Source of the DNA: Candidatus Amesbacteria bacterium GW2011_GWC2_45_19
Lineage (GTDB): Bacteria > Patescibacteriota > Microgenomatia > CAZETR01 > Amesbacteraceae
DNA: 64,000 bases
Assembly: GCA_001001555.1 (NCBI GenBank)
Contig: LCKS01000001.1
Coordinates: 82,066 to 146,065 of the forward strand
Direction of reading: 5' to 3'
Within the stretch, counting starts at the first letter, position 1; every line of letters begins with the position of its first letter. Shown here piece by piece: positions 7,275 through 32,464 of this stretch. A model generated the notes under the pieces. That model did not search any database. It saw only the letters and a list, made by a program, of their open reading frames with translations, and was not told the DNA's origin. The translations under genes and the position numbers were made by a program.

Positions 7275-8733
7275 ATGAAAATCAACGCTAAAACGATAAT
7301 AATTGGACTTTCAATATTACTTCTGGCAACTACCCTTCGTTTTTGGAATCTCAATTCATTGCCCATTTTTGCGGATGAAGCCATTTATGTGCGCTGGTCC
7401 CAGGTCATGCGCGCCGAATCCTCCTTACGTTTCTTGCCTCTCTCGGACGGCAAACAGCCTCTATTCATGTGGCTCACCATTCCTTTTTTGCGCATTGGCT
7501 GGCCTGGGCACAGTCATAGGTATCGGCCTAGCTTCCTACTTTCTATTTTCTAATATCAGGTTATCAATACTCACTACCCTGCTGGCCGCTGTCCTGCCAT
7601 ACCTGGTTTTCTTCGACCGGATGGCCCTGGCAGATAGTTTATTGGCTATGTTTTTAGTTTGGACATTTAATTTTTCTTATTTGTCTTTTATTCACCGGCG
7701 GTTAGACTTAGCCATGTTTGCCGGTTTCGCTCTGGGATTTGCCTGGCTGACTAAATCTCCCGCCATCTTCGCTTTCTTTCTCCTCCCTCTCAATTTTCTT
7801 TTTATACCTAAATATTCAGCCAAAAATATTCTAATTTCTAGTTTCTATTTTCTGGTTTCTGTCGCCATTGCCTTCGGCATGTATAATATTTTGCGTTTGG
7901 GCCCGGAGTTCCATCAGATTGCCTTGCGTAATGCAGACTATGTTTTTCCGCTGGCCGAAATTTTGCGTCATCTGCTGGATCCGCTCCTGCCCCATCTTAA
8001 AGATTCTTTTCTCTTTTTTGCCTACTTTCTCACTCCGCTAGGGCTGCTGGCCGCTATTACCGGCATTCTGGCCGGAGGCCGGTCTCGTTGGCGGACTCGT
8101 CTGGTCTTGGCCGCTTGGTGGCTAGGGCCGGTGCTGGTTCAATCCGCCATCGCCAGAGCCTTCACTGCCCGTTATTTATTGTTCACCGTTCCCTTTGCCG
8201 CGATTTTGATTGGCCACGCTTTGGAACATATTGGTCAGCGTACCCAAAAGCACTTTCTATCAATGGCTGCCGCCGGTCTGATTATCCTTCCGGCTTTGGC
8301 CATGGATTATTTGGCTGTTGCCCGCCCTGAATCTTTACCCCTACCCCGGATCGAACGGTCTGGCTATTTGGAAGACTGGACAGCCGGTTACGGTCTGCGG
8401 GACGTAGCCCAACGATTGCGCCAGTACGCCGCTGCGGGTCCGGTTTTGGTCGGCAGCGAAGGCTTTTTTGGCACCCCATTTAACGCTTTGCAACTATATT
8501 TAAACGATGTTTCCAACGTCCGTGTCATTGGCGTTGGTGTCTGGATAGACTCCGTCCATGAAAAACTTAAGAATTCCTTAGCTGATAACCAGGTGTTTTT
8601 AGTTGTTAATTCCACCCGCCTGCACGCCGACCCGGATCAAATAGGGCTAAAACTCATCGTCAGTTACCCCAAAGCTTACCGTCCCGACGGCACCCGCGAG
8701 TATCTGCTATTTTTCCAAGTTTTATCTAAATGA
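7275..8733 (+). pseudogene. GT-C (PMT_2-like) glycosyltransferase interrupted by a +1 frameshift in a T6 tract (7484..7489)
   Basis: Frame 0 gives the genuine N-terminus (ADEAIYVRW...KQPLFMWLTIPFL) and stops at 7553. The +1 frame continues with genuine TM-rich sequence (CALAGLGTVIG...) to 8733. Removing one T restores a single 485-aa ORF. Confidence 0.55.
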
Positions 8734-15093: not shown

Positions 15094-15964
15094 AAGTAAC
15101 CATTATTGTTCTTAATTGGAACGGCGAAAAATATATTATCTCCTGTTTGCAATCTTTGCGGCGTTTGGCAGTCCGTCCCCACCGGATAGAAGTAATAGTA
15201 GTGGACAATACCTCCACCGACCATTCGGTTGGGCTGATTAAAAAAAAGTTTCCCCAGCTTTTGCTTATCCAAGCCGGCCAAAATCTAGGCTACGCCGGAG
15301 GTAACAACATTGGTCTGCAATATGCCCTGGATCAGGGCAGCGACTTCGCCTGGATTGTCAACCCCGACGTCCAAGTTCATCCCCAAAGCTTGCTGGCTCT
15401 GCTGGAGGCCGCCTCAACCCATCCGGACGGCGGTATTTTTGGCTCCAAATGTTATTTCGCCAAAGGCTACGAGTTTCACAAAGACCGTTACACTCCTTCC
15501 CAACTGGGCCAGGTCATCTGGTATGCCGGAGGCAAGATCGATTGGGCTAACCTCATTACTCAACATATAGGCATTGATGAAGTAGACATCGGCCAATACA
15601 ACCAGACCAGGGAAACTGATACTGTCACTGGCACCTCATTTTTTATCCGCAGGCAAGTTCTGGAACAAATTGGCCTGATTGACCCTAAATATTTTTTGTA
15701 TTACGAGGAAACTGATCTCTGCGTCAGGGCTTCCCGCGCGGGCTGGAAACTGTTGGCCAGGCTTCTGGCATAGGTTCACCGTTGGCCGACTATTACACTA
15801 CCCGCAACCGGTTACTCTTCGGTCTGCGCTGGGCTCTTTGGCGCACCAAACTAGCTCTTTTCCGTGAGTCGCTCCGTCTGCTTTTTTCCAGCCGGCCGTG
15901 GCAGAAAAGGGGAGTAGTAGATTTTTATCTTGGCCGCTTCGGCCGGGGATCATATGTTAAGTAG
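15090..15964 (+). pseudogene. GT2 glycosyltransferase (WbbL/rhamnosyltransferase-like) apparently disrupted by an internal deletion plus frameshift near 15760..15780
   Basis: Frame 0 (15090..15773) has VTIIVLNWNGE...VVDNTSTD...ETDLCVRASRAGWKL then a stop. The conserved C-terminal segment (GQASGIGSPLADYYTTRNRLLF...) continues in another frame (15782..15964). About 12 expected residues between GWKL and GQAS are missing. Confidence 0.4.
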
Positions 15965-16712
15965 CATCATCATTACCAAAAATGAAGAAGACATGATCGG
16001 AGAATGTCTGCTGTCTCTGGAGTTTTCCGACGAAATTATAGTGGTTGATACCGGTAATACCGATTCCACCGACGATATTGCTAAATCATTCGGAGCCAGA
16101 ATCGTTACAAGTAATAGTAATAGCTACGCCGAATTTAGGAACGCCGGGCTTAAAGCCGCCCGCGGGGACTGGATCTTGTATGTAGATGCCGACGAACGGG
16201 TAACTCCTTTACTCAAAAAAGAGATTGAGCAAATAATGTTCTCACCAGATTCAGCCTCAGCTTATCAAATTCTCCGCAAAAATATTTATTTGGGTAAAGA
16301 GATGCGTTTCGGCGGCTGGGGCGGCGACCGGGTCATCCGGCTATTTAAAAGATCCGCCCTGCAAAGATACGAGGGCCAGCTTCACGAACAACCGGTTTTC
16401 ACCGGCAATCTCCTCACTACCCACTACGAACTAACCCACTACTCACATAGAGACCTATCTTCAATGTTAGATAAGACCTTAGATTTTACAGCCTACGAAA
16501 CCCGGTTGCGCCTGGCCGCCGGCCATCCGCCTCTGGCTTGGTGGAGATTCTTGCGGGTCATGCTCACCGAGTTTTGGCTGCGTTTCGTCAAGTTGTCCGC
16601 CTGGCGCGACGGTGTGGAAGGCGTCATCGATGGAATTTTCCAAGTATTCAACATGTTTGTTATCTATGCCCGCCTTTGGAAACTGCAAAATGAAAAGCGC
16701 CGCCATATTTAG
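15954..16712 (+). CDS. GT2 glycosyltransferase (short soluble type)
   Basis: LSSIIITKNEEDMI...EIIVVDTGNTDSTD...VDADERV. Confidence 0.7.
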   Translation: MLSSIIITKNEEDMIGECLLSLEFSDEIIVVDTGNTDSTDDIAKSFGARIVTSNSNSYAEFRNAGLKAARGDWILYVDADERVTPLLKKEIEQIMFSPDSASAYQILRKNIYLGKEMRFGGWGGDRVIRLFKRSALQRYEGQLHEQPVFTGNLLTTHYELTHYSHRDLSSMLDKTLDFTAYETRLRLAAGHPPLAWWRFLRVMLTEFWLRFVKLSAWRDGVEGVIDGIFQVFNMFVIYARLWKLQNEKRRHI

Positions 16713-17706
16713 TCCAACTTGGGATTCTTTGGGGGGTGGAGAAAGATACGCCGCCGCCTTTGCCAAATTGCTTTTGGAAAAAGGCTATAAAGTTGATATC
16801 TGGTGGCCTCACAACATTTCCACTGCCATCAAAGCCAGGTTTGGCATCGACGTCTCGCGTGCCGATTTTGTCCCTTTTCCTAAAAACGATCAACTATCAA
16901 CTATCAACTATCAACTGGTATTCTGGGTCAGCAACGGCAGCCTGCCGACTTCTCTGGCTAAAAGAACTCTCGTCCATTATCAAATTCCCTTTCGCAATCC
17001 GGGATTTCTCAACAAAATCAAAGCCCGTTTTTACACTTCAGTCTGCAATTCTATTTTTACCAAGCAAGTTATAGACCAAACATACGGCATTAACTCCCAA
17101 GTAATTTACCCGCCGGTCGATTTGGAGTACTTCCCTCCTCAATCCAAAACTAACTCTATCGTTTCCATCGCCCGTTTTTCTACCCTTCTCCATGCCAAAC
17201 GTCAGGATACTCTCATCGAAGCTTTCTCCCGCATTTCTTCTCAACTCCCGGGATGGGAGCTGATTTTAGCCGGGGGTTCTACAGACCCAAAGTATGTATA
17301 TAGTCTCAGGAAACAAGTAAAAAACCTGCCTGTCAAAATTATTACTAACCCCTCTCTTCCTAAATTAAGACAACTTTTAAGCTCTGCTAAAGTTTTTTGG
17401 TCGGCTACAGGTTTCGGTGTCAGCCCTGCCGCTCATCCGGAAAAAATGGAACACTTCGGCATTACCACGGTGGAAGCCATGGCAGCCGGGGCGGTACCCT
17501 TAGTCACCAACGCCGGCGGGCACAAGGAGACAGTCGTCCCTGGTCAATCTGGCTATTTATGGGATTCGATTGATCAACTAGTAAAATACACAGTCTCTCT
17601 ATCAAAAGACGAATCGCAGCTCCAAAAAATGGCCAGGCAAGCCCAAAAGCGGAGTAAACTGTTTTCAACTGCGGTTTTTAATACCCAATTTTCAAAATTG
17701 ATATGA
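16690..17706 (+). CDS. GT4 (GT-B fold) glycosyltransferase
   Basis: C-terminal GFGVSP...E.FGITTVEAMAAGAVPLVTNAGG motif region; contains (ATCAACT)x4 heptamer tandem repeat at 16889..16916. Confidence 0.65.
   Translation: MKSAAIFSPTWDSLGGGERYAAAFAKLLLEKGYKVDIWWPHNISTAIKARFGIDVSRADFVPFPKNDQLSTINYQLVFWVSNGSLPTSLAKRTLVHYQIPFRNPGFLNKIKARFYTSVCNSIFTKQVIDQTYGINSQVIYPPVDLEYFPPQSKTNSIVSIARFSTLLHAKRQDTLIEAFSRISSQLPGWELILAGGSTDPKYVYSLRKQVKNLPVKIITNPSLPKLRQLLSSAKVFWSATGFGVSPAAHPEKMEHFGITTVEAMAAGAVPLVTNAGGHKETVVPGQSGYLWDSIDQLVKYTVSLSKDESQLQKMARQAQKRSKLFSTAVFNTQFSKLI
16889..16916 (+). repeat. Heptanucleotide tandem repeat (ATCAACT)x4 inside GT4 coding sequence
   Basis: Read directly; encodes DQLSTINYQL. 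Confidence 0.8.
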
Positions 17707-20529: not shown

Positions 20530-21393
20530 CTAAACTTCTTCTACTAATTCCGGAAGGACCTGGATATAGGCTCTAACTAAATCCCACTTTCCCCACACGG
20601 CCCAGGCGGGAATTCTAATAGCACAGCCAAAAAGTAAAACCAACTTTAGCAGAAACCGTTCAGGAGCCGAATTGTATTTTTTAAACCAATACAGATAACC
20701 ACGCATTTCTCCCAAAAAAGAATTGGCGTAGGTTTTAACGCTTTGGCGAGCCAGATGCACACATTGGGCGCCCGGAAAATAATAGGTATCAAAGCCGGAT
20801 TTTTGGGTGCGGTACATCCATTCGGTTTCCTCTCCATACATATAAAAATTCTCGTCAACCCCCCCGGTTTTTTCGTAGACTCCACGCTTGAGCATCACAA
20901 AAGCCCCCATCACCCAGTCGACTTTTTGTGTGGTAGTAAATCTGGATAGGTCGCGGACGTGGACCGAATCGACGAATTTACGGATAACTGGGAAGTTGTC
21001 AACAAAGATTTGAAACTGAAGAATCCTGCGCAGAGTGGGGAAATATCCCCAGGAAGGTTGTATCGACAGGTCTTCGTTGAGTAGTTGGCAACCTAAAACA
21101 TCGTAATCTAGGGCATAACACTTGGCTAGAGTATCCGGATAGACAAATGCGTCACTGTTAAGAAGCAAAATTTTATCGCCTTTAGCTACTCTCATACCTT
21201 TGTTGTTATTGGCTCCAAATCCCAGGCGGGTGGGATTATTAATTATTTTCACTTTCGGAAAAACCAGTTTATCTTCCGGGGTGTTATTAATTAAAATAGT
21301 CTCAAATTCTATTTCCCGGGATCTATACAAATGCTGCAAACATTTGAACGTGACATCCGGGGTTCCGTGATTTATGATAATTACAGATAGCAT
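20530..21393 (-). CDS. GT2 glycosyltransferase
   Basis: MLSVIIINHGTPDVT...ILINNTPED...NSDAFV; start codon overlaps the divergent GT-C start (CATG). Confidence 0.7.
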   Translation of the reverse strand: MLSVIIINHGTPDVTFKCLQHLYRSREIEFETILINNTPEDKLVFPKVKIINNPTRLGFGANNNKGMRVAKGDKILLLNSDAFVYPDTLAKCYALDYDVLGCQLLNEDLSIQPSWGYFPTLRRILQFQIFVDNFPVIRKFVDSVHVRDLSRFTTTQKVDWVMGAFVMLKRGVYEKTGGVDENFYMYGEETEWMYRTQKSGFDTYYFPGAQCVHLARQSVKTYANSFLGEMRGYLYWFKKYNSAPERFLLKLVLLFGCAIRIPAWAVWGKWDLVRAYIQVLPELVEEV

Positions 21394-22987
21394 GAGCTGG
21401 ATTCTTAGCCTTATTTTAGCACTTAGCCTTATTTTACGCGTTGGGTTGTTGAATCAGGTTCCTCCGGAACTATTTGGTGATGAAGTCGACGTAGGTTACC
21501 AAGCCAGATCGCTCTTGCAAACCGGTCGGGATTTGTACGGCCAGGTATTGCCCACCTATATTCATTCTCTGGCCGAGTGGCGGGCCCCGCTTCTGATGTA
21601 CGCCACCGTTCCCACCATAGCTGTCTTTGACAACTCCGTCCGGGGCGTCCGCCTGCCGGAAGTCATTTTTGGTACTCTTGGCCCCCTGATTCTATTTCTT
21701 TTGGTTTACCAAATTTCGAAATCTTGGAAGTTTGGAGTTTTGGCGTTTTTGGTTATGGCCACCATGCCCTGGCATATTTATTATTCCCGGGCCGCCTTCG
21801 AAGTGGTTCTCATGCTCAACCTGGTCATGTTGGGCACTCTCCTTTTTCTTAAAAAACGTTTTGCACTTTGCACTTTGCACTTTGCACTAGCTATGTACAC
21901 TTACAGTACCGCCGTCCTATTTGTCCCGCTTTGGCTGGTTGTTCTGCACTTTCTTACTAAAACAAAACCCAAAGTTGTTTCCCTGTTATTATTTACGATT
22001 ATTGTTGCTCCATTGATATATCACATCGTCGCCGGCCCGGCCCGCGGCCGGTTTGGAGGTTTAAGTATTTTTAACCAGCAGGAACTGGTGAGAAATATTA
22101 ATGATTTGCGCCAGGAAGACAATAATCCCATCGCGCCCCTTTGGCACAACAAACCGGAAACTTACGCTTCGGCCATTATGGCCAATTACTTAAGAGCCTT
22201 TTCTACCGACTTTTTGTTTATCCGGGGCGATCCCATCTACCGCCACAGTATCCAGATAGTGGGTCAACTGTTAGCTATCTCTTCCCCGTTTGTGCTTCTG
22301 GGTTTGTGGTCCTTAGGCTCAAGGCGGCAATGGCTCTGGTTGTCCTGGCTGATTTTAGCTCCAATTCCGGCTGCCTTAACTGCCGACGGGGGATATCATG
22401 CTACCCGCCTCTTTCTCATGATCCCTCCTCTGGCCGTGGCCACCGGCACCGGTTTACTTTTAGTTCTGCAAAAATTACCCAGGATTTTAAATATCCTGTT
22501 AGTATTACTGTTTACTGTTTACATCGCGTGGCTGGGTCATTATTACGTGGCCCATTACGCCAAATCTTCCTGGCGCTGGTGGCACGTCGGGTTTGAGCAA
22601 GCGATGGTTCAATTAAACAAACTATCTCCTCAATACTCGCGGGTATTTATTAATAATACTTACGAACCGTCTTTAATTAGATTCTTGTTTTGGACCAATT
22701 ATTCTCCTGCCAAGTTTCACCGCCAATTCACTGTCGACCAGCCGCAGGATAACATCGTTCCCAATTACAACGGCTTTTCTCTGGACGGCAAATATTTCTT
22801 TGGCAATTTTAATAAATCAAACTGGACAGAATTTTTACTCCCCAACAGTCTGTATCTTATTTCCCAGCGCGACAATGTCGCCGGGGATTGGGACTGGCGC
22901 CGCACTCCGCCAGATAATATCCGCGTTCTCTTTACCAGCACCAATGCCTATGACCAGCCCGTCCTATATTTGATAACCAAGATATAA
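21392..22987 (+). CDS. GT-C family membrane glycosyltransferase (PMT_2/ArnT-like), paralog 1 of tandem array
   Basis: LFGDEVDVGYQARSLLQTGRD first-loop DE motif, 12+ TM; contains (TTTGCAC)x4. Confidence 0.65.
   Translation: MSWILSLILALSLILRVGLLNQVPPELFGDEVDVGYQARSLLQTGRDLYGQVLPTYIHSLAEWRAPLLMYATVPTIAVFDNSVRGVRLPEVIFGTLGPLILFLLVYQISKSWKFGVLAFLVMATMPWHIYYSRAAFEVVLMLNLVMLGTLLFLKKRFALCTLHFALAMYTYSTAVLFVPLWLVVLHFLTKTKPKVVSLLLFTIIVAPLIYHIVAGPARGRFGGLSIFNQQELVRNINDLRQEDNNPIAPLWHNKPETYASAIMANYLRAFSTDFLFIRGDPIYRHSIQIVGQLLAISSPFVLLGLWSLGSRRQWLWLSWLILAPIPAALTADGGYHATRLFLMIPPLAVATGTGLLLVLQKLPRILNILLVLLFTVYIAWLGHYYVAHYAKSSWRWWHVGFEQAMVQLNKLSPQYSRVFINNTYEPSLIRFLFWTNYSPAKFHRQFTVDQPQDNIVPNYNGFSLDGKYFFGNFNKSNWTEFLLPNSLYLISQRDNVAGDWDWRRTPPDNIRVLFTSTNAYDQPVLYLITKI
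21860..21887 (+). repeat. Heptanucleotide tandem repeat (TTTGCAC)x4 inside GT-C coding sequence
   Basis: Read directly; encodes FALCTLHFAL. Confidence 0.8.
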
Positions 22988-22988
22988 C

Positions 22989-24587
22989 ATGCGCCGTTTA
23001 TTAATTCTGGCCCTGATTATCGGATCGCTCACGCGTCTCTTGTGGATCTCCCGCTATCCGGCCGGATTCACTGCCGACGAAGCAGCTTTTGGCTACAATG
23101 CCTACTCGCTCTTGCTTACCGGCCGTGACGAATGGGGGACTCCCTGGTGGCAATTGTTTTTTACCAACCTCCGTTCCTTTGGGGATTATAAACTTCCCCT
23201 TTACGCTTTCCTGGCCGTTCCCTCCGTTAAAATATTTGGTCTGACTGAATTTGCCGTCCGCCTGCCCAACGCCATTTTTGGCATTCTGGCTATCACAAGC
23301 ATTTACTTACTGGCAAAAAAGTTATACCTCACCTCTCACCCCTCTCCTTTAAAAGGAGAGGGGAACGCAAGGGGTGAGGTACTGGGAGTAACTTCTGCAT
23401 TACTGCTAGCCATCAGCCCCTGGCATATTCAACTGTCCCGGGGTGCCTTTGAAGCCAATCTGGCCACCTTTCTCTTGCCGATGGGGATCTATCTGCTTCT
23501 GGAAAGCCATCCTCTCCTTTCCACCCTCTTTTTTATCGCCTCGGCCTACTCCTATCATTCCGCCAGACTAATATTGCCGTTCATCCTCGTTTTTCTTTTT
23601 ATATACTTCCGGGATAAATTCAAACCCCTATTAATTATTCCTCTTCTGATCTCGCTTTGGGGGCTGACTTCCCCCCGGGTGGCTGACGTAAGCATTTTCA
23701 GCCCTACCGATAACTGGTTAGGAGTAGCCACCCGCCGTTTTGAAGCCCGGGCCCTGGGTCTTCCGGACCAAATAGCCCGCGTTTTTTCCAACAAACTGGT
23801 TTATTCACTTTCTACATTCACCCAAAATTATATTTCCTATTTCTCTCCCAACTTTCTGTTCACCTCCGGGGCCGGCGAATCCTTTTACGGCATGATGCCG
23901 GGCAGGGGAGTGCTTTATTTGATTGAACTGCCAATTTTGATCATGGCCCTAATTTATTTCATCCGTCGGCCATCAAAACTATATTTACTATTACTTTTAC
24001 TATTACTAATCTCCCCTATTCCCGCCGCTTTGGCCAAAGGTCCCGGAGCCGCCGCCAACCGCGCGGCAATCATGCTTCCCTGGCTGGTAATTTTTCTCTC
24101 TACCATTATTGTCCGCCTTCCGCGCAAATGGCTGGCTCTTTTAGCCGGCGCTTACGTTATTAGCTTCGTCTTTTTCGTCGAGGATTATCTATATCATTCC
24201 TCTTATATTACCGCCCCTTCCATGTCTTACGGATGGCGGGAATTGGTGCCGCGCCTCAAGCCTTTTTCCGACCGCTTTTCCGATGTGCGCTTCAGCCGCT
24301 CTCTTTCCGAACCGCATATTTTTGTGGCTTTTTATTCCCGTTTCGATCCCCGGGAGTATCAAAAAGCCGCGGCTTCCTGGCCCCGCCATATCAAGTTTTT
24401 GGACCAGTTTGATGGTTATTATTTGGGTAAATACCGTTTCGGCGACATTCATCCCCAAGATCCGGTAATCACTCCTACACTTTTCATTGGTAAACCGGAG
24501 GATTTTCCCGCCGGTTTTCCCCAATATTTCCAGATTGATTATCCTTCTTCCCGGCCGGCTATCATAGTCGCCCAAAAACTTCCATGA
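22989..24587 (+). CDS. GT-C family membrane glycosyltransferase, paralog 2; carries in-frame palindromic mini-element insertion
   Basis: FTADEAAFGYNAYSLLLTGRDEWG; extra 17 aa (SHPSPLKGEGNARGEVL) relative to paralogs, encoded by nested inverted repeats. Confidence 0.65.
   Translation: MRRLLILALIIGSLTRLLWISRYPAGFTADEAAFGYNAYSLLLTGRDEWGTPWWQLFFTNLRSFGDYKLPLYAFLAVPSVKIFGLTEFAVRLPNAIFGILAITSIYLLAKKLYLTSHPSPLKGEGNARGEVLGVTSALLLAISPWHIQLSRGAFEANLATFLLPMGIYLLLESHPLLSTLFFIASAYSYHSARLILPFILVFLFIYFRDKFKPLLIIPLLISLWGLTSPRVADVSIFSPTDNWLGVATRRFEARALGLPDQIARVFSNKLVYSLSTFTQNYISYFSPNFLFTSGAGESFYGMMPGRGVLYLIELPILIMALIYFIRRPSKLYLLLLLLLLISPIPAALAKGPGAAANRAAIMLPWLVIFLSTIIVRLPRKWLALLAGAYVISFVFFVEDYLYHSSYITAPSMSYGWRELVPRLKPFSDRFSDVRFSRSLSEPHIFVAFYSRFDPREYQKAAASWPRHIKFLDQFDGYYLGKYRFGDIHPQDPVITPTLFIGKPEDFPAGFPQYFQIDYPSSRPAIIVAQKLP
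23326..23380 (+). repeat. Palindromic mini-element (MITE/REPIN-like) inside GT-C coding sequence
   Basis: Inner perfect palindrome CCCCTCTCCTTT-A-AAAGGAGAGGGG (23339..23363); outer arms CTCACCCCT / AGGGGTGAG; preceded by 7-mer periodic CCTCACC TCTCACC CCTCTCC. Confidence 0.65.
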
Positions 24588-26089
24588 AAAAATATATTTT
24601 TATCCTCTTGGTTCTTTTAATTCCCGCATTTTCTCTCATGCTCCGCCCGGGCATTTTTACCATGCATGACTTTCACCCTTTCCGGCAGTATGAATTTTCC
24701 CAATGCGTCGCCGCTAAAACTTTCCCCTGCCGCTGGGCCCCTGATGCCGGCATGGGTTACGGTGAACCGGTATTTAATTTTTACGGCCAATTTCCCTACT
24801 GGGTCGGGCAAATTTTTCACTCTCTGGGGTTACAAATCATTGATTCCGTCAAAGCCAATTTTATTCTGACCATCATAGTTTCGGCTGTCGGCATGTATTT
24901 GCTGGGCAAAAAATATTGGGGAAACTTGGGCGGGATGATCGCGGCCCTGTTTTACATTTATGCGCCTTACCGGGCGGTAGACGTCTGGGTCCGCGGCTCT
25001 CTCAACGAGGCTTACGCTCTGGCTCTATTTCCTTTTATATTTCTCTCGCTGGACAACTTTCTGGACGACCATCAGCCCCGGCACTTATGGTGGCTGGTTT
25101 TCTTTGCCTCCGCACTACTCATAACCCACAACTTATCCGCACTCATGATTGCTCCGTTTCTGGCCATTTGGGTTTTTAAGAAATTCCCCGTGCCCTTCTC
25201 CCGCCTGATTGCCGCGGCAGCCGCCGTTTTTCTCTTGAGTGCTTTTTATTTACTGCCGGTTATTTTTGAAAGCCGGTTAGTCACCCTGAATTTGACTACC
25301 AGCTCCTATTACAATTATCAGCTCCACTGGACTACTCTCAAACAACTCTTTATTTCCCGTTTCTGGGGTTACGGCGGCTCCACCTGGGGCCCCAATGATA
25401 CTATGAGTTTTTCTGTGGGCTACCTGCAATGGCTCGTCCCTCTATTTCTTCTTCTTCGCAAAAAGTCCCTCGCGTTTATCGCTTTTGGCTTCTTTGCCGT
25501 TTTTCTCACTCACGGCAAGTCGGAATTTATCTGGAAACTTTTTCCGCCCCTGGCTTATATCCAATTCCCTTGGCGTTTCCTGGCCGTCTCTACTTTCTTT
25601 TTGTCTCTTTCCTCCGGCGCCATCTCTCAAGTTTTCTCCAAAAAAATTCTAAGTCTCTTAATCATCTTAGTTATCTTAATTAACTTTTCTTTCTTCCGTC
25701 CGGATATTTGGCGCAGCATTGGAGATAAAGAACAATTCTCGGGAGCCTTGTGGGACGAACAGCGCTCTTCCGCTCTTCAGGATTTTTGGCCTAAGACGGC
25801 CAAACAACTTCCCACCGGTTTTGCCCCACGCCTCCCCCAGGTTTTACTTACTACTGACACTTATCAAAAAATCCAATACCCAATTGTTTATTTCCCCGGC
25901 TGGAAATCCCAAGTCGAGCTGTTTCCATCGGGCCCATTGGGCCTCATCACTGCCCGGGTTCCCCTGGGCACTCAAATTAACCTGAAATTTACCAACACCC
26001 CAATCAGAACCATCGGCAACATTACTAGTTTGGTCGCTTTGCTATGTCTCATCTTAAGTGGCTATTACTTATTACCGCGGCGGGTCTAA
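24584..26089 (+). CDS. Large polytopic membrane protein, family B (paralog of 8730..10388)
   Basis: FPCRWAPDAGMGYGEPVFNFY...YAPYRAVDVWVRGSLNE...TNTPIRTIGN. Confidence 0.45.
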   Translation: MKKYIFILLVLLIPAFSLMLRPGIFTMHDFHPFRQYEFSQCVAAKTFPCRWAPDAGMGYGEPVFNFYGQFPYWVGQIFHSLGLQIIDSVKANFILTIIVSAVGMYLLGKKYWGNLGGMIAALFYIYAPYRAVDVWVRGSLNEAYALALFPFIFLSLDNFLDDHQPRHLWWLVFFASALLITHNLSALMIAPFLAIWVFKKFPVPFSRLIAAAAAVFLLSAFYLLPVIFESRLVTLNLTTSSYYNYQLHWTTLKQLFISRFWGYGGSTWGPNDTMSFSVGYLQWLVPLFLLLRKKSLAFIAFGFFAVFLTHGKSEFIWKLFPPLAYIQFPWRFLAVSTFFLSLSSGAISQVFSKKILSLLIILVILINFSFFRPDIWRSIGDKEQFSGALWDEQRSSALQDFWPKTAKQLPTGFAPRLPQVLLTTDTYQKIQYPIVYFPGWKSQVELFPSGPLGLITARVPLGTQINLKFTNTPIRTIGNITSLVALLCLILSGYYLLPRRV

Positions 26090-27549
26090 TTTTACGGCTG
26101 GCTGCCATTAATTTTTTGCCGCCCAGTCTCAACTGGGACGAAGTGTCACTGGGCTACAACGCTTACTCGCTTCTTAAAACCGGCCGGGATGAATGGGGAA
26201 CAGTTCTGCCCACTATTTTTCGCGCTTATGGCGATTACAAATTGCCTGTTTACGTTTATCTGGCCACAGTCATGCCCTTTTTTGTGCGCCTGCCCTCAAT
26301 CATTCTGGGCACCCTGCTCATTGTAATCACCTATCTATTAGGCCGCCGGCTATCTTCTCCGTTCGTGGGCTTGACTTCGGCTTTGCTGGTAGCCATCTCT
26401 CCCTGGACCTGGTGGATGTCCCGCATCGCATTGGAAGCCAATGTGGGGGTCTTGCTCATTGTCGTAGGTGTCTACTGTCTACTAATCCGTAAACTTAACT
26501 TGGGAATTCTCTTTTTGGGACTGTCAGTTTGGGCTTACAACTCCGCCCGTGTTTTCTCCCCCCTATTTTTATCCGCTTATTTTTTGATTTATCGTCCCAA
26601 ATTATCTATTGTCTCCTATTCTCTAATTTCTATTTTCCTCATCCCTATGATTATTCAGCTCTTGTCTCCGGTTGGTCAAGCCCGCCTCAACTGGCTGACT
26701 CTTTTGGATTCTGGAGCTATTTCCCGCATAGAGAACCTGCAAACCACCCGCCCCGGCGGCCGTCTGCTGTACAACAAGGCCACTTATTTTACCTACCGTT
26801 TCGTTCAAAATTACATCAGTTACTTTTCTCCCAATTTCTTATTTCTCAAGGGAGGAAACCATTATCAATTCAGCGTCCAAAACTTCGGCCTTCTTTATCT
26901 AATCTGTTTGCCATTTTTTTACATTGGGATTTTGAATTTATTTGGATCTTCGAATTTTAAATTTAGAATTTTACTTCTCATATGGCTCTTGTTGGCCCCA
27001 ATTGCTGGTAGTTTGACCCGTGACGCGCCTCATGTCTTACGCGCTGTCCCCCTGCTTCCTTTACCCATGCTGCTTATCTCCCTCGGCCTGGACCGTTTCG
27101 GCCGTAACGTTAAAGCCTTTTTCTTCACGGGTCTCCTAATATCTATTATCTACTATCTAGTATCCGCGAATAGTTACCGTAGTAACTATTCGCAATCTTG
27201 GCAATATGGTTATTCCCAGGTAGTTCAATTTATTAAACCCCGGTACTCCCAATACGACCAAATCGTTTTTACCAAAAAGTATGGGGAGCCTCACGAATTC
27301 GTGGCTTATTTCTGGCCCTGGGATCCCGCTGACTTTGCCAAAAATAAATCCTGGGACTACCACGCCAATTGGTATTGGGTAAACGCTTTGGATAAGATAA
27401 AGTTCGTAAACGATTGGGAGATTAAAAACATGGCCTTTAAACCGAACACTTTGGTTATTTCCAGTCCCGAAAGTGAAATTGCCGGCCGCGAGATAACCAG
27501 AATTAATTTTCTCGACGGCCAACCCGCCTTTATCATTTATGAGAAATAG
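26044..27549 (+). CDS. GT-C family membrane glycosyltransferase, paralog 3
   Basis: LNWDEVSLGYNAYSLLKTGRDEWG; shares exact 22-nt string CTATTCTCTAATTTCTATTTTC (26616..26637) with 2816..2837. Confidence 0.65.
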   Translation: MSHLKWLLLITAAGLILRLAAINFLPPSLNWDEVSLGYNAYSLLKTGRDEWGTVLPTIFRAYGDYKLPVYVYLATVMPFFVRLPSIILGTLLIVITYLLGRRLSSPFVGLTSALLVAISPWTWWMSRIALEANVGVLLIVVGVYCLLIRKLNLGILFLGLSVWAYNSARVFSPLFLSAYFLIYRPKLSIVSYSLISIFLIPMIIQLLSPVGQARLNWLTLLDSGAISRIENLQTTRPGGRLLYNKATYFTYRFVQNYISYFSPNFLFLKGGNHYQFSVQNFGLLYLICLPFFYIGILNLFGSSNFKFRILLLIWLLLAPIAGSLTRDAPHVLRAVPLLPLPMLLISLGLDRFGRNVKAFFFTGLLISIIYYLVSANSYRSNYSQSWQYGYSQVVQFIKPRYSQYDQIVFTKKYGEPHEFVAYFWPWDPADFAKNKSWDYHANWYWVNALDKIKFVNDWEIKNMAFKPNTLVISSPESEIAGREITRINFLDGQPAFIIYEK

Positions 27550-29101
27550 AATTATTCTCTTATTCATAGTCCTACTTGGGCTGGGACTTAGACTGTTTCG
27601 TCTAGATTCCCGCCCGTTAGGCTTTACCTGGGACGAAGCCGCTCTTGGTTACAACGCTTATTCGCTTCTTAAAACTGGCCGGGACGAGTATAGCAAAGTC
27701 CTACCCGTCGTTCTCAAATCCTTTGGCGACTACAAACCCGGCGCCTATGCCTACCTGGCTGTTCCTCCTATCGCCACTTTCGGCTTGAACGAGTTCGCCA
27801 CCCGTCTGCCCTCAGCCATCTTTGGAACGTTGCTTATTGTTATTGTTTACCTGCTCACCCGGAATATGTTTGCGGCCGGACTTTTGGCCATTAATCCCTG
27901 GTCGCTTTATTTTTCCCGCGGGGCTTGGGAGGCCAATGTCGCTCTTACCCTCACCGTTCTGGGCGTCCTTTTGTTTATCCGCCGCCGTTATCTGGTTTCG
28001 GCTCTCTTTTTTGGTTTGACCTTTCTTACTTACCAGGGAGCCAAAATGTTTACTCCGCTTCTTATTTTGTCCCTTCTTCTAATCTACCGTCCCAATATTA
28101 AATCATTAATTAAACCCCTGATCTTCCTGATCTTCCTGATCTTCCCCATCCTCCTGGGTCTCACCACCCAATCCGGCCGCCTGAAGGTCTTTAGCGTCTT
28201 CAGTTATTCGCGTTCTCCTTCCGTCGTCGGGGAAATAGAACGTCAGGATAATAACAATCCTTTTCTTTTCACTCTCTTCCATGCAGAAATTATTGACCAG
28301 GGCCGGGGAGTACTGCAAAGATATCTCAACCATTTTTCTCCTTATTATCTGTTCTTCGCCGGAGACTGGCAAAACCTGCGCCACTCCATTCCTTACTACG
28401 GCTACTTCCACCTTCCGGAAATAGTTACTGTCGTTCTAGGTCTTATTTTCCTAATCTCTAATTTCCAATCTCCAATTTCTAAAGTTCTTCTCACTTGGCT
28501 GCTGCTGGCCCCTTTGCCCTCCGCCCTTTCCCGCGACCTAGTCTCCGGCGTCCGCTCCCTGCCCCTGCTGGTACCCCTGGTCGTGCTTAGCGGCATTGGT
28601 TTGTCCCAACTTTTTCGCCATCGTCTTCTCTTATACTCTTACGCTCTGATACTTTTATTTTTCTTCGTCTATTATCTTGATTTATTCTATATCCACGCCC
28701 CCAATTTCACTGCCGTTGACTTCCTTTATCCCTATCGCCCCGCGCTTCAGACAATCAAACTTCTTGTCTCAAATTATAAAAAGATTGTTATCACTTCCCA
28801 ACTTGGTCAACCCTACATATTTACTTTATTTTATTTGCAAATCGACCCCCGCATATATCAATCTCAAGCCCGTTTGCGCGAAAATCCCCAAGGGGACGTA
28901 GGCGAAGTAGAAAAATTTGATATATTCGAATTCCGTCCCATTTTCTGGCCGGCTGATAGGGGATTGTCATCAACTCTATTTGTGGGTGGCCAGTACGAGC
29001 TTCCCGAATCAGATTTACAGACCACTCCCAATCTGGAAAGAGTTTCCGATATCACTTACCCCGGCGGGGCCCCCGCCTTAAAAATTGTTGGCCTCAAATG
29101 A
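27539..29101 (+). CDS. GT-C family membrane glycosyltransferase, paralog 4
   Basis: FTWDEAALGYNAYSLLKTGRDEY; contains (CCTGATCTT)x3. Confidence 0.65.
   Translation: MRNRIILLFIVLLGLGLRLFRLDSRPLGFTWDEAALGYNAYSLLKTGRDEYSKVLPVVLKSFGDYKPGAYAYLAVPPIATFGLNEFATRLPSAIFGTLLIVIVYLLTRNMFAAGLLAINPWSLYFSRGAWEANVALTLTVLGVLLFIRRRYLVSALFFGLTFLTYQGAKMFTPLLILSLLLIYRPNIKSLIKPLIFLIFLIFPILLGLTTQSGRLKVFSVFSYSRSPSVVGEIERQDNNNPFLFTLFHAEIIDQGRGVLQRYLNHFSPYYLFFAGDWQNLRHSIPYYGYFHLPEIVTVVLGLIFLISNFQSPISKVLLTWLLLAPLPSALSRDLVSGVRSLPLLVPLVVLSGIGLSQLFRHRLLLYSYALILLFFFVYYLDLFYIHAPNFTAVDFLYPYRPALQTIKLLVSNYKKIVITSQLGQPYIFTLFYLQIDPRIYQSQARLRENPQGDVGEVEKFDIFEFRPIFWPADRGLSSTLFVGGQYELPESDLQTTPNLERVSDITYPGGAPALKIVGLK
28117..28143 (+). 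repeat. 9-nt tandem repeat (CCTGATCTT)x3 in GT-C paralog 4
   Basis: Read directly; encodes LIFLIFLIF in a TM segment. Confidence 0.8.
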
Positions 29102-30675
29102 AAAAATTTCTCCTCATTTTCATTCTTATCCTGGCATCAGTCCTGCGGCTCTACAAACTGTCTTCATACCCGGCTGGTCTAAACGCCGATGAAGCCGCGT
29201 TAGGTTACAATGCTTATTCTTTGATGCTGACCGGCCGTGATGAGCACGGCCATCCCTGGCCGGTGAATCTGGAATCGTTCGGCGATTTCAAGCCTGCCGG
29301 CTACGCGTATTTGCTCATTCCTTTCATCAAAGTTTTCGGCCTGACCGAACTGGCCGTCCGCCTCCCCTCGGCTATCTTCGGCATCCTAGCCGTTCTCTTC
29401 ATCTATTTACTGGTCAAAGAGCTGAGCACTGAGGGCTGCGCGCTGATAGCTGCGATATTGCTAGCAATATCGCCGTGGCATTTGCACTTCTCCCGCGGCG
29501 GCTGGGAAGTCAACGTGGCCACCACTCTGATTCTCATCGGCGTCTGGCTCTTCCTCAAACGTCGCTTTGCCCTTTGCACTTTGCCCTTTGCACTTTCGAT
29601 GTACACCTACCAATCAGCCCGCGTCATCGTCCCTTTTCTGGGATTAGGACTAATATTACTCAATCGCCCAAAAAAGATTCTGTCTAGCGGCTTATTACTG
29701 TTACTGTTATTATCTCCTCTGGCCCTCTCGGTACTTCGTTCAGACGCCGCCTCCCGTTTATCCGGCGTGGGGCTGCTGGCCGATGAAGGGCCTCTTAACC
29801 GGGCCAAAGAACTGCGCGGCCAACATGCAAACTGGAGTTCTCCTCTGTCCCGGATTCTCCACAACCGGCCCGTTCTCTACACCATCCAATTCTTGAAAAA
29901 TTACACAGATCATTTTTCCGGCGACTTTCTTTTCGTCAACGGCGACGTCATCCCCCGGAACCGGGTTCCCGAAACCGGCCTGCTGTATTTCACTGATTTC
30001 ATCTTTCTGGCTCTGGGCGTGGTCTATCTTCTCCGCACTACTCACTACTCACTACACACCCGGGTTATCTGGCTCTGGTTGCTCGTCGCCCCTCTTGCTG
30101 CGGCTCTGACGTTCCAAATCCCCCACGCCCTGCGGGCCCACACCTTGGTCATTCCCCTCACGATCTTGATCGCGGCCGGCGGATACTCTTTAAAGGAGAC
30201 TCCTTTTAAGTTTAAAAGGAGTCTCCTTTTTATAGTGGCTGTGATTTATTTGTGGCAATTTGCCAGATATCTGCACCAGTATTACATCCACTATCCCCAA
30301 ACTTATCCTTACGCTTGGGAGTACGGTTTCAAAGAACTGGTGGCTTACGTGGGATCGGTCCAAGACAAATATGAAAAGATTTTAGTCACCGATAAATATG
30401 ACCAGCCATATATTATCTTTCTCTTTTATTCCAAGTATCCGCCTCAATTATTCCAAAATAATCACCAGCTTACTTTCAGGGATAAGTTTAATTTCTCTAC
30501 CGTCCGCGACTACGGCAAGTTCCATTTTGCCGCCACTCCCTGGTCAACCGTCCGCGATATCCATTCCTCGCTTATTGTGGCCGCCCCGGAAGATATTCCC
30601 GAAGTAGGTGTTAATATAGTTAAAACCATTAATTTTCCCAATGGCCAGCCCGCATTTAAAATAATCAGCAACTAA
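29098..30675 (+). CDS. GT-C family membrane glycosyltransferase, paralog 5
   Basis: LNADEAALGYNAYSLMLTGRDEHG; closest to paralog 1 (RRFALCTLPFALSMYTY). Confidence 0.65.
   Translation: MKKFLLIFILILASVLRLYKLSSYPAGLNADEAALGYNAYSLMLTGRDEHGHPWPVNLESFGDFKPAGYAYLLIPFIKVFGLTELAVRLPSAIFGILAVLFIYLLVKELSTEGCALIAAILLAISPWHLHFSRGGWEVNVATTLILIGVWLFLKRRFALCTLPFALSMYTYQSARVIVPFLGLGLILLNRPKKILSSGLLLLLLLSPLALSVLRSDAASRLSGVGLLADEGPLNRAKELRGQHANWSSPLSRILHNRPVLYTIQFLKNYTDHFSGDFLFVNGDVIPRNRVPETGLLYFTDFIFLALGVVYLLRTTHYSLHTRVIWLWLLVAPLAAALTFQIPHALRAHTLVIPLTILIAAGGYSLKETPFKFKRSLLFIVAVIYLWQFARYLHQYYIHYPQTYPYAWEYGFKELVAYVGSVQDKYEKILVTDKYDQPYIIFLFYSKYPPQLFQNNHQLTFRDKFNFSTVRDYGKFHFAATPWSTVRDIHSSLIVAAPEDIPEVGVNIVKTINFPNGQPAFKIISN
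29565..29596 (+). repeat. Degenerate heptamer array (CTTTGC[A/C])x4 in GT-C paralog 5, homologous position to (TTTGCAC)x4 in paralog 1
   Basis: gCTTTGCCCTTTGCACTTTGCCCTTTGCACTTTcg. Confidence 0.7.
30192..30229 (+). repeat. Perfect 18-bp inverted repeat with 2-nt spacer (REPIN-like doublet) inside GT-C paralog 5
   Basis: AAAGGAGACTCCTTTTAA-GT-TTAAAAGGAGTCTCCTTT; core GACTCCTTTTAAG resembles REP core CACTCCTTTAAGG. Confidence 0.65.
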
Positions 30676-31490
30676 TGAAGTATCACCCCTCCTCACTACG
30701 TTCGGTTTCCCCTCTTAAATTAAGAGGGGACAAAGGGGTGATATTGTCTGTTGTTCTTGCCACTCGCAATGAGGAGGCCAATCTAACTCGTTGTCTGGAG
30801 GCGGTAAAATCGATTGCCAATGAGATAATCATTGCGGACGAGCAATCAACCGACAAAACAGTGGGAATAGCCAAAAAATTCGGGGCAAAAGTCATTTCTG
30901 TTCCGCATCAGGAAAATTTCCATATCACCAAAAATATCGCCATAGACGCCGCCCGTGGAGACTGGATCCTCCAATTAGATGCCGACGAAGTCGTCTCCCC
31001 CGAACTGGCTTGCGAAATTGTCTCTACTATCAACCATGAATCATCAACCATGAACGGTTATTGGGTTAACCGCCGCAATTGGTTTCTCACCCGCTTCTTA
31101 TCTAAAGGCGGCCAATATCCGGATCCCACTCTCCGCCTGTACCGCCGGGGAAAAGGAAGACTTCCGGCCAAAGACGTGCACGAGCAAGCACAGATCCAGG
31201 GTCCAACCGGCCGCTTGCGGAACGATTTGTACCACTACCGGGATACCAGTTTCGCCAAGTACTTAGATGGTTTTAATCGCTATTCATCGTTTTTGGCGGC
31301 AAATATTAACCCCGAGGTCAATTTGCGGCAAACTCTCAACTACCTGGGCTGCAAACCAGTGGTAACGTTTTGTAAAATCTATTTTCGTCACCGGGGTTAC
31401 GTTGACGGTTACCCTGGTTTTGTCTTTGCCCTCTTTTCCGGCCTCACCCACGCCATCGCCTATATTAAATATTGGCAAAGGTTATTATGA
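30675..31490 (+). CDS. GT2 glycosyltransferase (short soluble type); true start possibly GTG at 30738
   Basis: VVLATRNEE...EIIIADEQSTDKT...LDADEVV. The first 21 codons (KYHPSSLRSVSPLKLRGDKG) are encoded by a palindromic mini-element and are probably not native coding sequence. Confidence 0.65.
   Translation: MKYHPSSLRSVSPLKLRGDKGVILSVVLATRNEEANLTRCLEAVKSIANEIIIADEQSTDKTVGIAKKFGAKVISVPHQENFHITKNIAIDAARGDWILQLDADEVVSPELACEIVSTINHESSTMNGYWVNRRNWFLTRFLSKGGQYPDPTLRLYRRGKGRLPAKDVHEQAQIQGPTGRLRNDLYHYRDTSFAKYLDGFNRYSSFLAANINPEVNLRQTLNYLGCKPVVTFCKIYFRHRGYVDGYPGFVFALFSGLTHAIAYIKYWQRLL
30681..30743 (+). repeat. Palindromic mini-element (same architecture as 23326..23380) at gene junction
   Basis: Outer perfect 10-bp arms TATCACCCCT / AGGGGTGATA; inner CCCCTCTTAA-A-TTAAGAGGGG (30709..30729). 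Confidence 0.65.
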
Positions 31491-32464
31491 TCAAGGTTGG
31501 TTTCATTACGGCTCCTCTTCACGACGCTAACGCAGTCCGCGGCGTCGGGTCATATACCCGCCGCCTTCTTCCGGAACTCAAAAAACAAACCTCTGATTTT
31601 GGATTTGAAATCGTTGAAAATGACACGTCTGCAGAGATTATCCACTATCCGTATTTTGATTTATTTCGGCACACTTTACCAATATTCAAAGATGCCAAGA
31701 CTATAGTTACCGTCCATGACGTTATTCCTTTGGAATTTCCCGATCATTATCCACCCGGCCTGCGCGGCTGGTTTAATCTGCAACTACAAAAACTAGCCCT
31801 GAGCGAAGTCGAAGGGGTGATTACCATTTCGTACCACTGCGTTAAGACAATTCATAAGTACTTAAACGTACCTCACGGCAAGTTGAAATTGGTTTACGAA
31901 GCCGCTGACTCCATATTTAAAAAGATTTCTAAACCCAAAAATAAATTTAACCTGCCCAAAAAATTCGTTCTCTACGTTGGAGATGTAAATTGGAATAAGA
32001 ATATACCCAATTTAATTAAAACCTGTGAACAAATAAATTACCCATTGGTAATGGTGGGTAAACAAGCAGCTGAAGTAGAAAAATTGGACTTAAATCATGC
32101 CGAACTGCGGCATTTACAAGGAGTAGATTGGAGTAAAGTTATGAAATTGGGATTCGTGTCCGCTGCAGACCTAGTGGACATTTACAATTTGGCCACTGTT
32201 TATTGCCAGCCTTCATTTTCAGAAGGTTTTGGCCTGCCGGTGGTGGAAGCTCTGGCTTGCGGTACTCCGGTGGCCTGCAGTAATACTTCATCTTTGCCGG
32301 AAATAGCCGGCGACTCTGCCACCTACTTTGATCCCCATGATGTAAACGATATGGCTAAAGCTATCAAAAAGGCCAAGCCTAGCACTGTACAACCCAAGTT
32401 TTCCTGGGCCAAAGCCGCCGCCCAAACTTTGCAAGTCTACCAGGAAGTATTAGAGTTGGTTTAA
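31487..32464 (+). CDS. GT4 (GT-B fold) glycosyltransferase
   Basis: PSFSEGFGLPVVEALACGTPVACSNTSSLPE; ATGA overlap with upstream gene; last 30 nt duplicated downstream of BrnTA. Confidence 0.7.
   Translation: MIKVGFITAPLHDANAVRGVGSYTRRLLPELKKQTSDFGFEIVENDTSAEIIHYPYFDLFRHTLPIFKDAKTIVTVHDVIPLEFPDHYPPGLRGWFNLQLQKLALSEVEGVITISYHCVKTIHKYLNVPHGKLKLVYEAADSIFKKISKPKNKFNLPKKFVLYVGDVNWNKNIPNLIKTCEQINYPLVMVGKQAAEVEKLDLNHAELRHLQGVDWSKVMKLGFVSAADLVDIYNLATVYCQPSFSEGFGLPVVEALACGTPVACSNTSSLPEIAGDSATYFDPHDVNDMAKAIKKAKPSTVQPKFSWAKAAAQTLQVYQEVLELV
32425..32452 (+). repeat. Left copy of 28-nt direct repeat bracketing the BrnTA cassette (3' end of GT4 gene)
   Basis: AACTTTGCAAGTCTACCAGGAAGTATTA vs 33049..33076 AACTTTGCAAGTCTACCGGGAAGTATTA (27/28). 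Confidence 0.7.

Follow-up and report, generated by a model that had tools for sequence, protein, structure and literature searches.

Non-triplet repeats inside bacterial genes are usually read as phase-variation switches and are recognized by their length polymorphism. In Neisseria meningitidis, a heptanucleotide repeat governs the phase variation of pglE, a glycosyltransferase gene, and ON and OFF states have been seen among carriage isolates (PMC7157529). Haemophilus influenzae carries heptanucleotide repeats in the promoters of hmw1A and hmw2A, and strain PittAA has (AATTTTG)14 inside hmw1a, associated with a frameshift; these tracts comprise 13-38 units, the number differing among the strains listed (PMC2651432). 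The same study surveyed tetranucleotide simple-sequence repeats (SSRs) at 28 loci across 16 H. influenzae genomes and reported 0-4 heptanucleotide SSRs of at least three units per genome of ~1.8 Mb (PMC2651432). More widely, heptameric SSRs are reported to be over-represented in many bacteria, an excess tied hypothetically to how much DNA the polymerase active site covers (PMC4692102, citing Mrazek 2007). Coding heptanucleotide repeats are a known kind; the evolutionary signature of those considered here is unusual. They lie in a 64,000-nt stretch (the window) of Candidatus Amesbacteria bacterium GW2011_GWC2_45_19 (contig LCKS01000001.1, positions 82,066-146,065), an uncultivated member of the Microgenomates within the Candidate Phyla Radiation (CPR) whose closest other genomes are also Amesbacteria. 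A first-pass annotation had picked out two four-unit heptamer arrays, one in a GT-C and one in a GT4 glycosyltransferase gene, as candidate contingency loci for surface glycan variation. We find that such arrays stay at one position and one length across species while changes are copied from unit to unit. A literature search combining CPR or Patescibacteria with phase variation, simple-sequence repeats or heptanucleotide repeats listed no paper that brings the two together.

Three arrays and their host open reading frames (ORFs) carry the argument, with repeat calls from Tandem Repeats Finder (TRF):

21860..21888, + strand: perfect (TTTGCAC)x4.1 array called by TRF, P1 codons 163-172, encoding FALCTLHFAL
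21374..22987, + strand: P1, a GT-C/PMT_2-like paralog, predicted 537-aa polytopic membrane protein
16885..16916, + strand: (AACTATC)x4.6 array with a mismatch at 16888, the same array as (ATCAACT)x4, encoding N[D/Y]QLSTINYQL
16666..17706, + strand: GT4 glycosyltransferase gene, 346 aa as called, Glycos_transf_1 at 78.6 bits
29565..29596, + strand: perfect 14-mer (CTTTGCCCTTTGCA)x2.3 at the P6 position homologous to the P1 array, encoding FALCTLPFAL
29098..30675, + strand: P6, a 525-aa GT-C glycosyltransferase, PMT_2 at 37.8 bits (cut-off 26.1) and PMT at 27.2 bits

Sequence and TRF agree with the first-pass annotation that (TTTGCAC)x4 in P1 and (ATCAACT)x4 in the GT4 gene are perfect and in frame. 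The former occupies 21860-21887 (TRF: 21860-21888, period 7, 4.1 copies, 100% matches) and the latter 16889-16916; in the AACTATC register the GT4 array extends over 16885-16916 (4.6 copies, 96% matches), its one mismatch being G16888. The annotation had also placed a degenerate version of the P1 array at the homologous position of another paralog, here P6. The position stands but the degeneracy does not: scored as a 7-mer the array has 4.6 copies at 88%, whereas as a 14-mer made of two half-units, TTTGCCC and TTTGCAC, it has 2.3 copies at 100%. All three arrays lie within intact plus-strand ORFs and are translated through (RFALCTLHFALAMYTY, KNDQLSTINYQLVFW and RFALCTLPFALSMYTY), in the protein contexts KKRFALCTLHFALAMYTY for P1, PKNDQLSTINYQLVFW for GT4 and KRRFALCTLPFALSMYTY for P6; the opposite strand has no long ORF at the arrays. 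Judged by hydropathy (Kyte-Doolittle) alone, as was membrane topology for all array segments, the P1 array forms the start of a hydrophobic segment after a KKR turn. The GT4 array sits in the N-terminal domain, directly ahead of a conserved NYxLVFWVS strand.

The host genes are predicted glycosyltransferases. P1 has no Pfam match of its own; it aligns over its full length with neighbouring paralogs at 28-30% identity (29% to P6), shows nine overlapping Kyte-Doolittle transmembrane (TM)-like windows, carries GDEVDVGY and is named 'Glycosyltransferase RgtA/B/C/D-like domain-containing protein' in one source. A profile match, polytopic topology and an acidic first-loop motif would place P1 and P6 among the GT-C fold glycosyltransferases (PMT_2/ArnT-like). 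P6 is the sixth ORF of a tandem run spanning 21374-30675, or the fifth if the PTPS_related-type ORF at 24584..26089 is left out. Besides its Glycos_transf_1 score, the GT4 protein reaches 55.7 bits for Glyco_trans_1_4 and 25.9 bits for Glyco_transf_4, the last just under the cut-off, and the combination of a Glyco_transf_4 N-terminal with a Glycos_transf_1 C-terminal domain points to membership of the GT4 family. Its true start is likely the ATG at 16690 (MKSAAIF), which would give 338 aa and match the orthologs.

Comparison with relatives indicates that the arrays are old. An alignment of the 12 GT-C paralogs in the window has no indel at the array, where the family consensus reads RRxxLxxLxFGLxxxxY. 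P1 orthologs from other aquifers (63-82% identity) have the same length at the array site, GT4 orthologs (59-81% identity) all read NYQLSTxNYxL at the same length, and every P1, P6 and GT4 ortholog examined (~30 species) holds four units. The first-pass annotation had judged the periodicity old from a single paralog; its age is borne out by orthologs of 59-82% identity and by that paralog, all of which have it at matching codons. Because all orthologs read NYQLSTxNYxL, the aspartate encoded by the GT4 codon with G16888 is derived. The sister assembly, L002 among the related loci (L numbers), has T at 16888, which makes the array perfect over 4.6 units, and G16888T is one of only four single-nucleotide polymorphisms in 17 kb between two same-species assemblies. 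A shared inserted element, suggested by the near-identity of the sequences ahead of both perfect arrays (CTTTTTCTTAAAAAACG vs CCTTTTCCTAAAAACG), was considered and rejected: these sequences are conserved coding DNA of the usual sort, specifying LFLKKR in every GT-C paralog and PFPKN in GT4 orthologs. Neither array is an insertion; both fill protein segments that have the same length in paralogs and orthologs. Together these alignments show that the arrays are old, conserved in position and clamped in length. Separately, a 48%-identical GT4 ortholog in L016 (996-1014) has (AACTAAT)x2.7 at the same loop as the AACTATC array.

Less expected is how the units change. At the P1/P6 site the structure of four times 7 nt is kept in orthologs, while the units differ between genomes and co-vary within each:

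P1 of the window: (TTTGCAC)x4
P6 of the window: (TTTGCCC TTTGCAC)x2
L007: TTTGCCC TTTGTCC TTTGCCC TTTGCCC
L006: (TTTGCAC TTGGCAC)x2
L040: (TTTGAGC TTTGCGT)x2
L012: TTTGAAT TTTGCGT TTTGAAT TTTGCCT
L079/L080 (P6 orthologs): TTTGAGC/TTTGCGY pairs
L114/L115 (Shapirobacteria): (TTTGTTT TTGGTTT)x2
L123 (Woesebacteria): (TTATTGT TTCTTGT)x2.5

Residues 2 and 7 of the encoded segment pair as A/H, A/P, E/S and E/N. This co-variation is not a protein-level effect, because units 1 and 3 are read in different frames. Among 86 distinct, ungapped tracts homologous to the GT-C array, the 14-nt halves match at 12 or more of 14 positions in 12, five of them perfectly; at offset 7 the same level is reached in 6 of the 86, and at the other offsets from 6 to 21 in none. 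As a control, half 1 of one genome against half 2 of another reaches at least 12/14 in 0.6% of pairs. The mean match at offset 21 (seven residues) is also raised in these tracts.

The GT4 array behaves in the same way. Two loci have it in perfect form, as (AACTATC)x4.6: L002, and the 73%-identical ortholog L156, which comes from another continent (Hainich aquifer). Units 3 and 4 have both changed to AACTATG in L153, L154 and L155, and at the protein level I->M accompanies Q->E in 4 of 4 sequences. Pairs of positions with the same amino acid use identical codons in 83.7% of cases inside the array vs 47.8% in the rest of the gene, a value reached by none of 310 other 11-codon windows (maximum 74.6%). 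Two further sites bear on this, the first being a second array in P6:

30036..30059, + strand: (CACTACT)x3.4 array in P6, in a short polar loop, LLR-TTHYSLHT-RVIWLWL

At this loop at least eight species have heptamer arrays of 3-4 units, with unrelated units in the same place (CACTACT, GACCAAA (x4 in L079), AACyAwG, TACAAGA, ACTyAGC, AGCTAyA, ATCCAAC and AAAATTn). The other site is in a second GT4 gene (31472..32464), which is array-free in the window (31487-31786). Its ortholog in L078 has (AACTATG)x2.6, of ATGAACT type, in a loop longer by 7 aa (21 nt, three units), and also (TCAAAGT)x2.6, the two arrays lying at 13298-13315 and 13362-13379. In L083 (12496-12518), (AAGGCTC)x3.3 stands at the place of the L078 TCAAAGT array, with length unchanged. 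These patterns show a DNA-level process that copies changes between units, so that the arrays evolve in concert, and such concerted co-variation offers new support for slippage-type dynamics.

As the first-pass annotation had supposed, arrays of this kind are unexpected by chance. When the codons of the 21 ORFs in 1-32.5 kb were shuffled 300 times, period-7 runs of at least 11 matched bases averaged 0.017 (maximum 1) vs 6 observed. Perfect arrays of at least 2.5 copies in the window number six at period 7, two at period 5, four at period 6, none at period 8 and one at period 9. The six period-7 arrays are all ORF-internal and confined to the first 32 kb; the remaining half (32-64 kb), likewise a glycan cluster, has none. 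The bias extends to 1.91 Mb of related Microgenomates loci, where, with one cut-off (11 or more matched bases) applied to every period, there are 78 period-7 runs and 47 period-14 runs, and no other period between 5 and 15 has more than 15. Perfect arrays with three or more units in this sample comprise 25 heptamers, compared with 5, 8, 3 and 1 at periods 5, 6, 8 and 9. The over-representation of 7-nt units described for bacterial SSRs is present both in the window and in the 1.91 Mb.

Per megabase of the same sample, GT-C ORFs have 48 period-7 runs, other ORFs 28 and the DNA outside long ORFs 63. The other array host genes examined are mostly glycan genes (GT2, GT4, YfhO, UDP-glucose dehydrogenase). 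In the distant Patescibacteria locus L148, a class-I aminoacyl-tRNA synthetase gene (1029 aa) contains (AACTCAA)x4.3 in frame at 5771-5800 and a second in-frame array, (GAATTAT)x2.9, at 7131-7150. A four-unit heptamer array in an ORF is therefore not confined to surface genes in the superphylum, and heptamer arrays in this lineage are not in themselves evidence of a switch.

Adding or removing a single unit shifts the frame, as the first-pass annotation had proposed. In silico, P1 falls from 537 aa to 169 aa (3 units) or 197 aa (5 units), GT4 from 346 aa to 133 or 100 aa, and P6, on length change, from 525 aa to 191 or 187 aa; a TAG directly follows the P1 array in the frame produced by loss of one unit. 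Each array would thus be a latent frameshift site at which a one-unit slip truncates the protein, and the predicted architecture is that of a contingency locus: a non-triplet repeat inside an ORF in which a one-unit change would abolish the full-length product.

Length variants were sought at the level of assembly consensus, where minor alleles within a sample are invisible. The exact four-unit P1 protein occurs in 38 blocks of the assembly collection, on contigs from Rifle aquifer groundwater (PRJNA268031; JGI 3300025308 contig Ga0209211_10000103), with the source names Candidatus Amesbacteria bacterium GW2011_GWB1_47_26 and GWC2_45_19. The neighbouring gene P2 was read on 24 contigs; P1 is 537 aa long at the two places displayed, and 22 further contigs were grouped with them as sharing most of the proteins around it. 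Clusters at 90% identity contain eight GT4, eight P1 and two P6 members, with four units in every member that covers the array, the shorter ones being fragments or using another start codon. Exact look-up of ten predicted length variants (P1 with 1, 2, 3, 5, 6 or 7 units, GT4 with 3 or 5, P6 plus or minus 14 nt) in a collection of 15 billion proteins found none, and the out-of-frame tails, concatenated as a homology query, had no match in the protein collection. No tblastn match broke at an array among 150 related loci. Altogether, neither length variants nor OFF alleles appeared in ~40 same-species assemblies, in ~30 related species or among the predicted frameshift products looked up. The first-pass annotation had expected unit numbers to vary and had named their constancy across strains or relatives as the result that would count against a switch; at assembly level it is constancy that we observe, with four units throughout. 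At the consensus level, then, the arrays lack the polymorphism of a contingency locus. The gap-length spectrum of ortholog proteins has a weak shoulder at 7 aa, which was not used as evidence, the pairs being non-independent.

Several interrupted P1-like genes turned up in these searches. The only nearby break among the 150 loci is in L065 (~1385-1430), where the frame shifts within a T9/T8 run ahead of the array position. L040 has an in-frame TAA at ~1500, five codons past the array, on a contig whose name gives a coverage of 3. A search for truncated P1 alleles with the N-terminal 162 aa returned many short homologs, of which those on long contigs are broken elsewhere than at the array (P0140, P0146, P0147, P0148/P0161, P0166); the P1-like genes P0166 and P0148/P0161 are on long contigs, some broken at several places, away from the array. 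The interrupted genes in L065, L040, P0166 and P0148/P0161 may be pseudogenes or sequencing errors. One further protein, P0141 (156 aa; L159 1368-1838, L160 652-1119), ends right after ...FIKKR, where the array would start. Beyond that point L159 has TAA and unrelated sequence and the L160 contig stops at that base, which makes the case uninterpretable; the end may mark a point of rearrangement or a branch in the assembly graph at the array.

We consider it probable that the arrays are slippage-prone SSRs clamped in length, shaped by DNA-level copying together with protein selection on length; we infer slippage or conversion as the copying mechanism. Heptamer-biased polymerase slippage would probably yield the lineage-wide excess of 7- and 14-nt repeats. 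A repeat would arise in a tolerant protein segment, at the start of a TM helix or in a surface loop, and out-of-register pairing of its units would then copy changes from unit to unit, either by mismatch repair at constant length or by loss and regain of a unit. Each base of a unit falls in turn at every codon position, so that protein-level selection would both fix the 28 nt of four units and limit the unit sequences. The expected outcome is a position-conserved array, internally uniform, with a unit sequence that diverges from species to species. Deletion followed by reduplication would involve OFF intermediates and thus be a slow form of phase variation, unlike repair. The array in the synthetase gene suggests that there must be a length-neutral route or a single-step 21-nt gain. 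Nothing indicates that the arrays are used as a switch.

A number of observations weigh against this account. We infer slippage from its evolutionary footprint alone, no length variant of an array having been seen, and near-identical locus pairs (~370 kb aligned) contain one 7-nt indel, off-array, and no indel of a multiple of 7 nt at the arrays. The account would also require that an array be 'written over' a stretch of fixed length, even in an essential gene. Exchange between paralogs contributes as well, as the P1-P6 identity peak at the array shows. The lineage-wide claim comes from a biased 1.9 Mb, with loci picked around GT-C genes. The excess of period 7 over the non-triplet periods 5, 8 and 10 goes beyond what length clamping would give, and its basis is a published hypothesis.

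A reading in which the arrays are adaptive contingency loci, kept for their mutability so that loss or gain of 7 or 14 nt reversibly toggles glycosyltransferases, strikes us as rather unlikely. It would give an episymbiotic CPR cell a varied surface glycan, useful perhaps against phage or in attaching to a host; only four units would be ON, the segment being constrained, and repeated OFF-to-ON cycles would homogenize the units. Much of the architecture suits it: the unit is non-triplet, the array lies in the first third of the gene, shifted frames truncate fast (as at the TAG after the P1 array), and the glycan genes belong to a run of at least six paralogs, each likely dispensable. Array position is held while unit sequence turns over, and unit co-variation at a distance of 14 nt would be expected from delete-then-reduplicate cycles. 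There is the heptanucleotide-controlled precedent of pglE in N. meningitidis (PMC7157529), and a neighbouring GT2 gene has an apparent gene-inactivating 34-nt deletion polymorphism. Yet not one OFF or other-length allele was found across the 38 blocks, the cluster members and the orthologs of ~30 species, and the predicted variants and out-of-frame tails are missing from the 15-billion-protein collection. The tracts are far shorter than the expression-linked heptanucleotide tracts of H. influenzae, at 13-38 units (PMC2651432), an aminoacyl-tRNA synthetase gene has an array of this kind too, and the second glycan cluster of the window (32-64 kb) is array-free. The contingency-locus claim of the first-pass annotation is supported in part: its structural half, a frame-shifting non-triplet unit within an ORF, stands; the missing unit-number polymorphism, the synthetase array and the greater length and length polymorphism of classic tracts (PMC2651432) speak against the rest. 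It is similarly doubtful that the arrays are length-clamped contingency loci in the form of low-rate reversible frameshift switches with four units as their sole ON state. Were they so, arrays in most of at least six tandem GT-C paralogs, plus GT2 and GT4 genes, would provide a combinatorial repertoire of surface glycoforms, and this would be the first SSR phase variation described in the CPR, undetectable by comparing lengths from strain to strain.

Short-tract gene conversion between GT-C paralogs, or horizontal exchange of a ~60-nt module, could account for most of the array similarity with no process inside the array, and as an explanation we consider this improbable. Nucleotide identity between P1 and P6 peaks exactly at the tract, at 80% over 20 codons (17/20 residues the same) vs 45.5 +/- 9.7% gene-wide. 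Two haplotypes, the GCMC and the GAGC/GCGT unit types, are common to P1 and P6 orthologs of different genomes, and exact matches join the arrays at 2816-2837 and 26616-26637 (a 22-mer) and at 9872-9890 and 25666-25684 (a 19-mer), which sit at homologous TM positions of otherwise very divergent GT-C and PTPS_related paralogs. The peak, the shared unit types and the exact matches argue that short-tract conversion between paralogs adds to within-array copying. It would neither create nor maintain tandem identity inside one array, however; co-varying changes 14 nt apart (TTTGCAC->TTGGCAC in units 2/4, GAGC->GAAT in units 1/3) need copying within the array, and the GT4 array behaves alike with no paralogous partner in the window. 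That conservation at the DNA level exceeds protein need might instead reflect a cis-acting DNA or RNA element within the ORF (for instance an operator, a platform for protein binding or a site of translational pausing). This seems very improbable to us: units differ across genes and species and offer no common motif to recognise, direct repeats cannot form a hairpin, the window has no Rfam match, and no promoter- or terminator-like site lies at the arrays, regional counts being near the shuffle expectation. Least credible of all is chance or protein-level mimicry by hydrophobic T-rich codons and codon bias. The arrays do lie in T-rich TM-coding DNA and the match at offset 21 is raised, but the codon shuffles (0.017 runs vs 6) and the offset test refute this reading: enrichment is limited to offsets 7 and 14, and co-variation joins residues read in different frames.

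The window contains further heptamer arrays, diverse in unit sequence and every one ORF-internal:

22505..22522, + strand: perfect (TTACTGT)x2.6 array in P1, in a C-terminal TM-like segment, LLFTVY
2816..2854, + strand: TCTAATT/CTATTCT-type 7/14-mer array in the GT2-GT-C fusion ORF 1482..3638
7829..7860, + strand: (TTCTAGT/TTCTAAT)x4.6 array in the GT-C-like ORF 7303..8733, in the same TM helix after a basic loop
26616..26637, + strand: CTATTCTCTAATTTCTATTTTC array in the GT-C paralog 26044..27549, at a TM position homologous to the arrays at 2816 and 7829
27136..27164, + strand: (CTAATAT)x4.1 array, 86% matches, in the GT-C paralog 26044..27549
28447..28479, + strand: 14-mer x2.3 (7-mer x3.4) array in the GT-C paralog 27539..29101
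16415..16446, + strand: degenerate (CACTACC)x4.4 array in the GT2 ORF 15930..16712

Repeats that stay in frame are also present in TM-coding DNA: (CCTGATCTT)x4.4 at 28117-28156, encoding LIFLIFLIF; (TTACTA)x4 at 23985-24008, encoding a run of eight leucines; and (TCTCTA)x3.7 at 11575-11596, in a flippase-like gene and encoding SLSLSLS.

GC content drops from ~47% to ~38% near 32.5 kb. The low-GC half (32501-64000), which has genes for GT2, GT4, PIG-V-like, epimerase and DegT aminotransferase proteins, may have been acquired more recently, as an island; gene calls in L001 place a BrnT/BrnA-like toxin-antitoxin pair at the junction, ~32500. A 34-nt piece (ATTACGTGCCGGAAAGCATAGTCTGGCACCGGGT) is missing at 15753|15754 and present in two same-species assemblies (L001 4347-4380). 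Its loss frameshifts a GT2 gene, which encodes 238 aa in the window vs 302 aa in L001; the piece includes an inverted repeat, GTGCC...GGCAC, and has GT microhomology at its ends. The loss is either a real gene-inactivating polymorphism of the glycan cluster or an assembly error. A 28-nt motif, GGGACACTCCTTTAAGGTTAGTCCTTTT, occurs three times, at 6456-6483, 6665-6692 and 7182-7209 (100%, 100% and 93% identity). Read on the minus strand, the motif includes a Shine-Dalgarno-like AAGGAG core; its last copy immediately precedes the start of the minus-strand ORF 7180..6488, and it may be a repeated leader or regulatory motif.

At these loci, species 20-40% apart in protein sequence share non-triplet repeats of a single in-frame length at a single position, and the units are still copied into one another. 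They point either to a hidden style of contingency locus in ultra-small episymbiotic bacteria with little-known surface biology or to non-adaptive upkeep of repeats. If the upkeep is non-adaptive, slippage or conversion can keep perfect, frameshift-prone repeats for a long time, which would caution against calling phase variation from sequence alone. In either case, the 7/14-nt excess extends the unexplained heptamer bias of bacteria to the CPR.

Set beside the described systems, the Amesbacteria arrays are familiar in form and different in behaviour. Like the pglE tract, the nearest functional precedent, ahead of the hmw repeats, they place a 7-nt unit in the ORF of a surface-glycan glycosyltransferase, where a change of one unit shifts the frame, among several glycan genes that could be combined; pglE occurs in ON and OFF states among isolates, whereas the Amesbacteria tract has four units throughout, in a structurally constrained segment. 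The tetranucleotide tracts of H. influenzae lipooligosaccharide genes are long, highly length-polymorphic and located in the 5' part of the gene. They share with the present arrays a non-triplet SSR associated with glycan genes; the Amesbacteria arrays differ in having four units in conserved structural segments. With the hmw genes the likeness lies in heptamer SSRs tied to surface-protein genes, one of them intragenic and accompanied by a frameshift. Four units exceed the permissive three-unit threshold used for heptanucleotide SSRs in that work, although the tracts described there have 13-38 units (PMC2651432) and vary in number, while the 1.9 Mb of Microgenomates loci has 25 heptamer SSRs of at least three units, and the window two of at least four units within 5 kb, all short and invariant in length. 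With the heptamer repeats of Xanthomonas and Nostoc the arrays share an excess of 7-nt units over other unit lengths that is lineage-wide and ascribed to polymerase slippage. Those repeats are mostly intergenic and G-rich, follow one consensus unit per genome and vary in length between close relatives. The window does not conform to that type, its units being diverse and ORF-internal; the present repeats mostly lie within ORFs and are translated, and their length is fixed and their position conserved from species to species.

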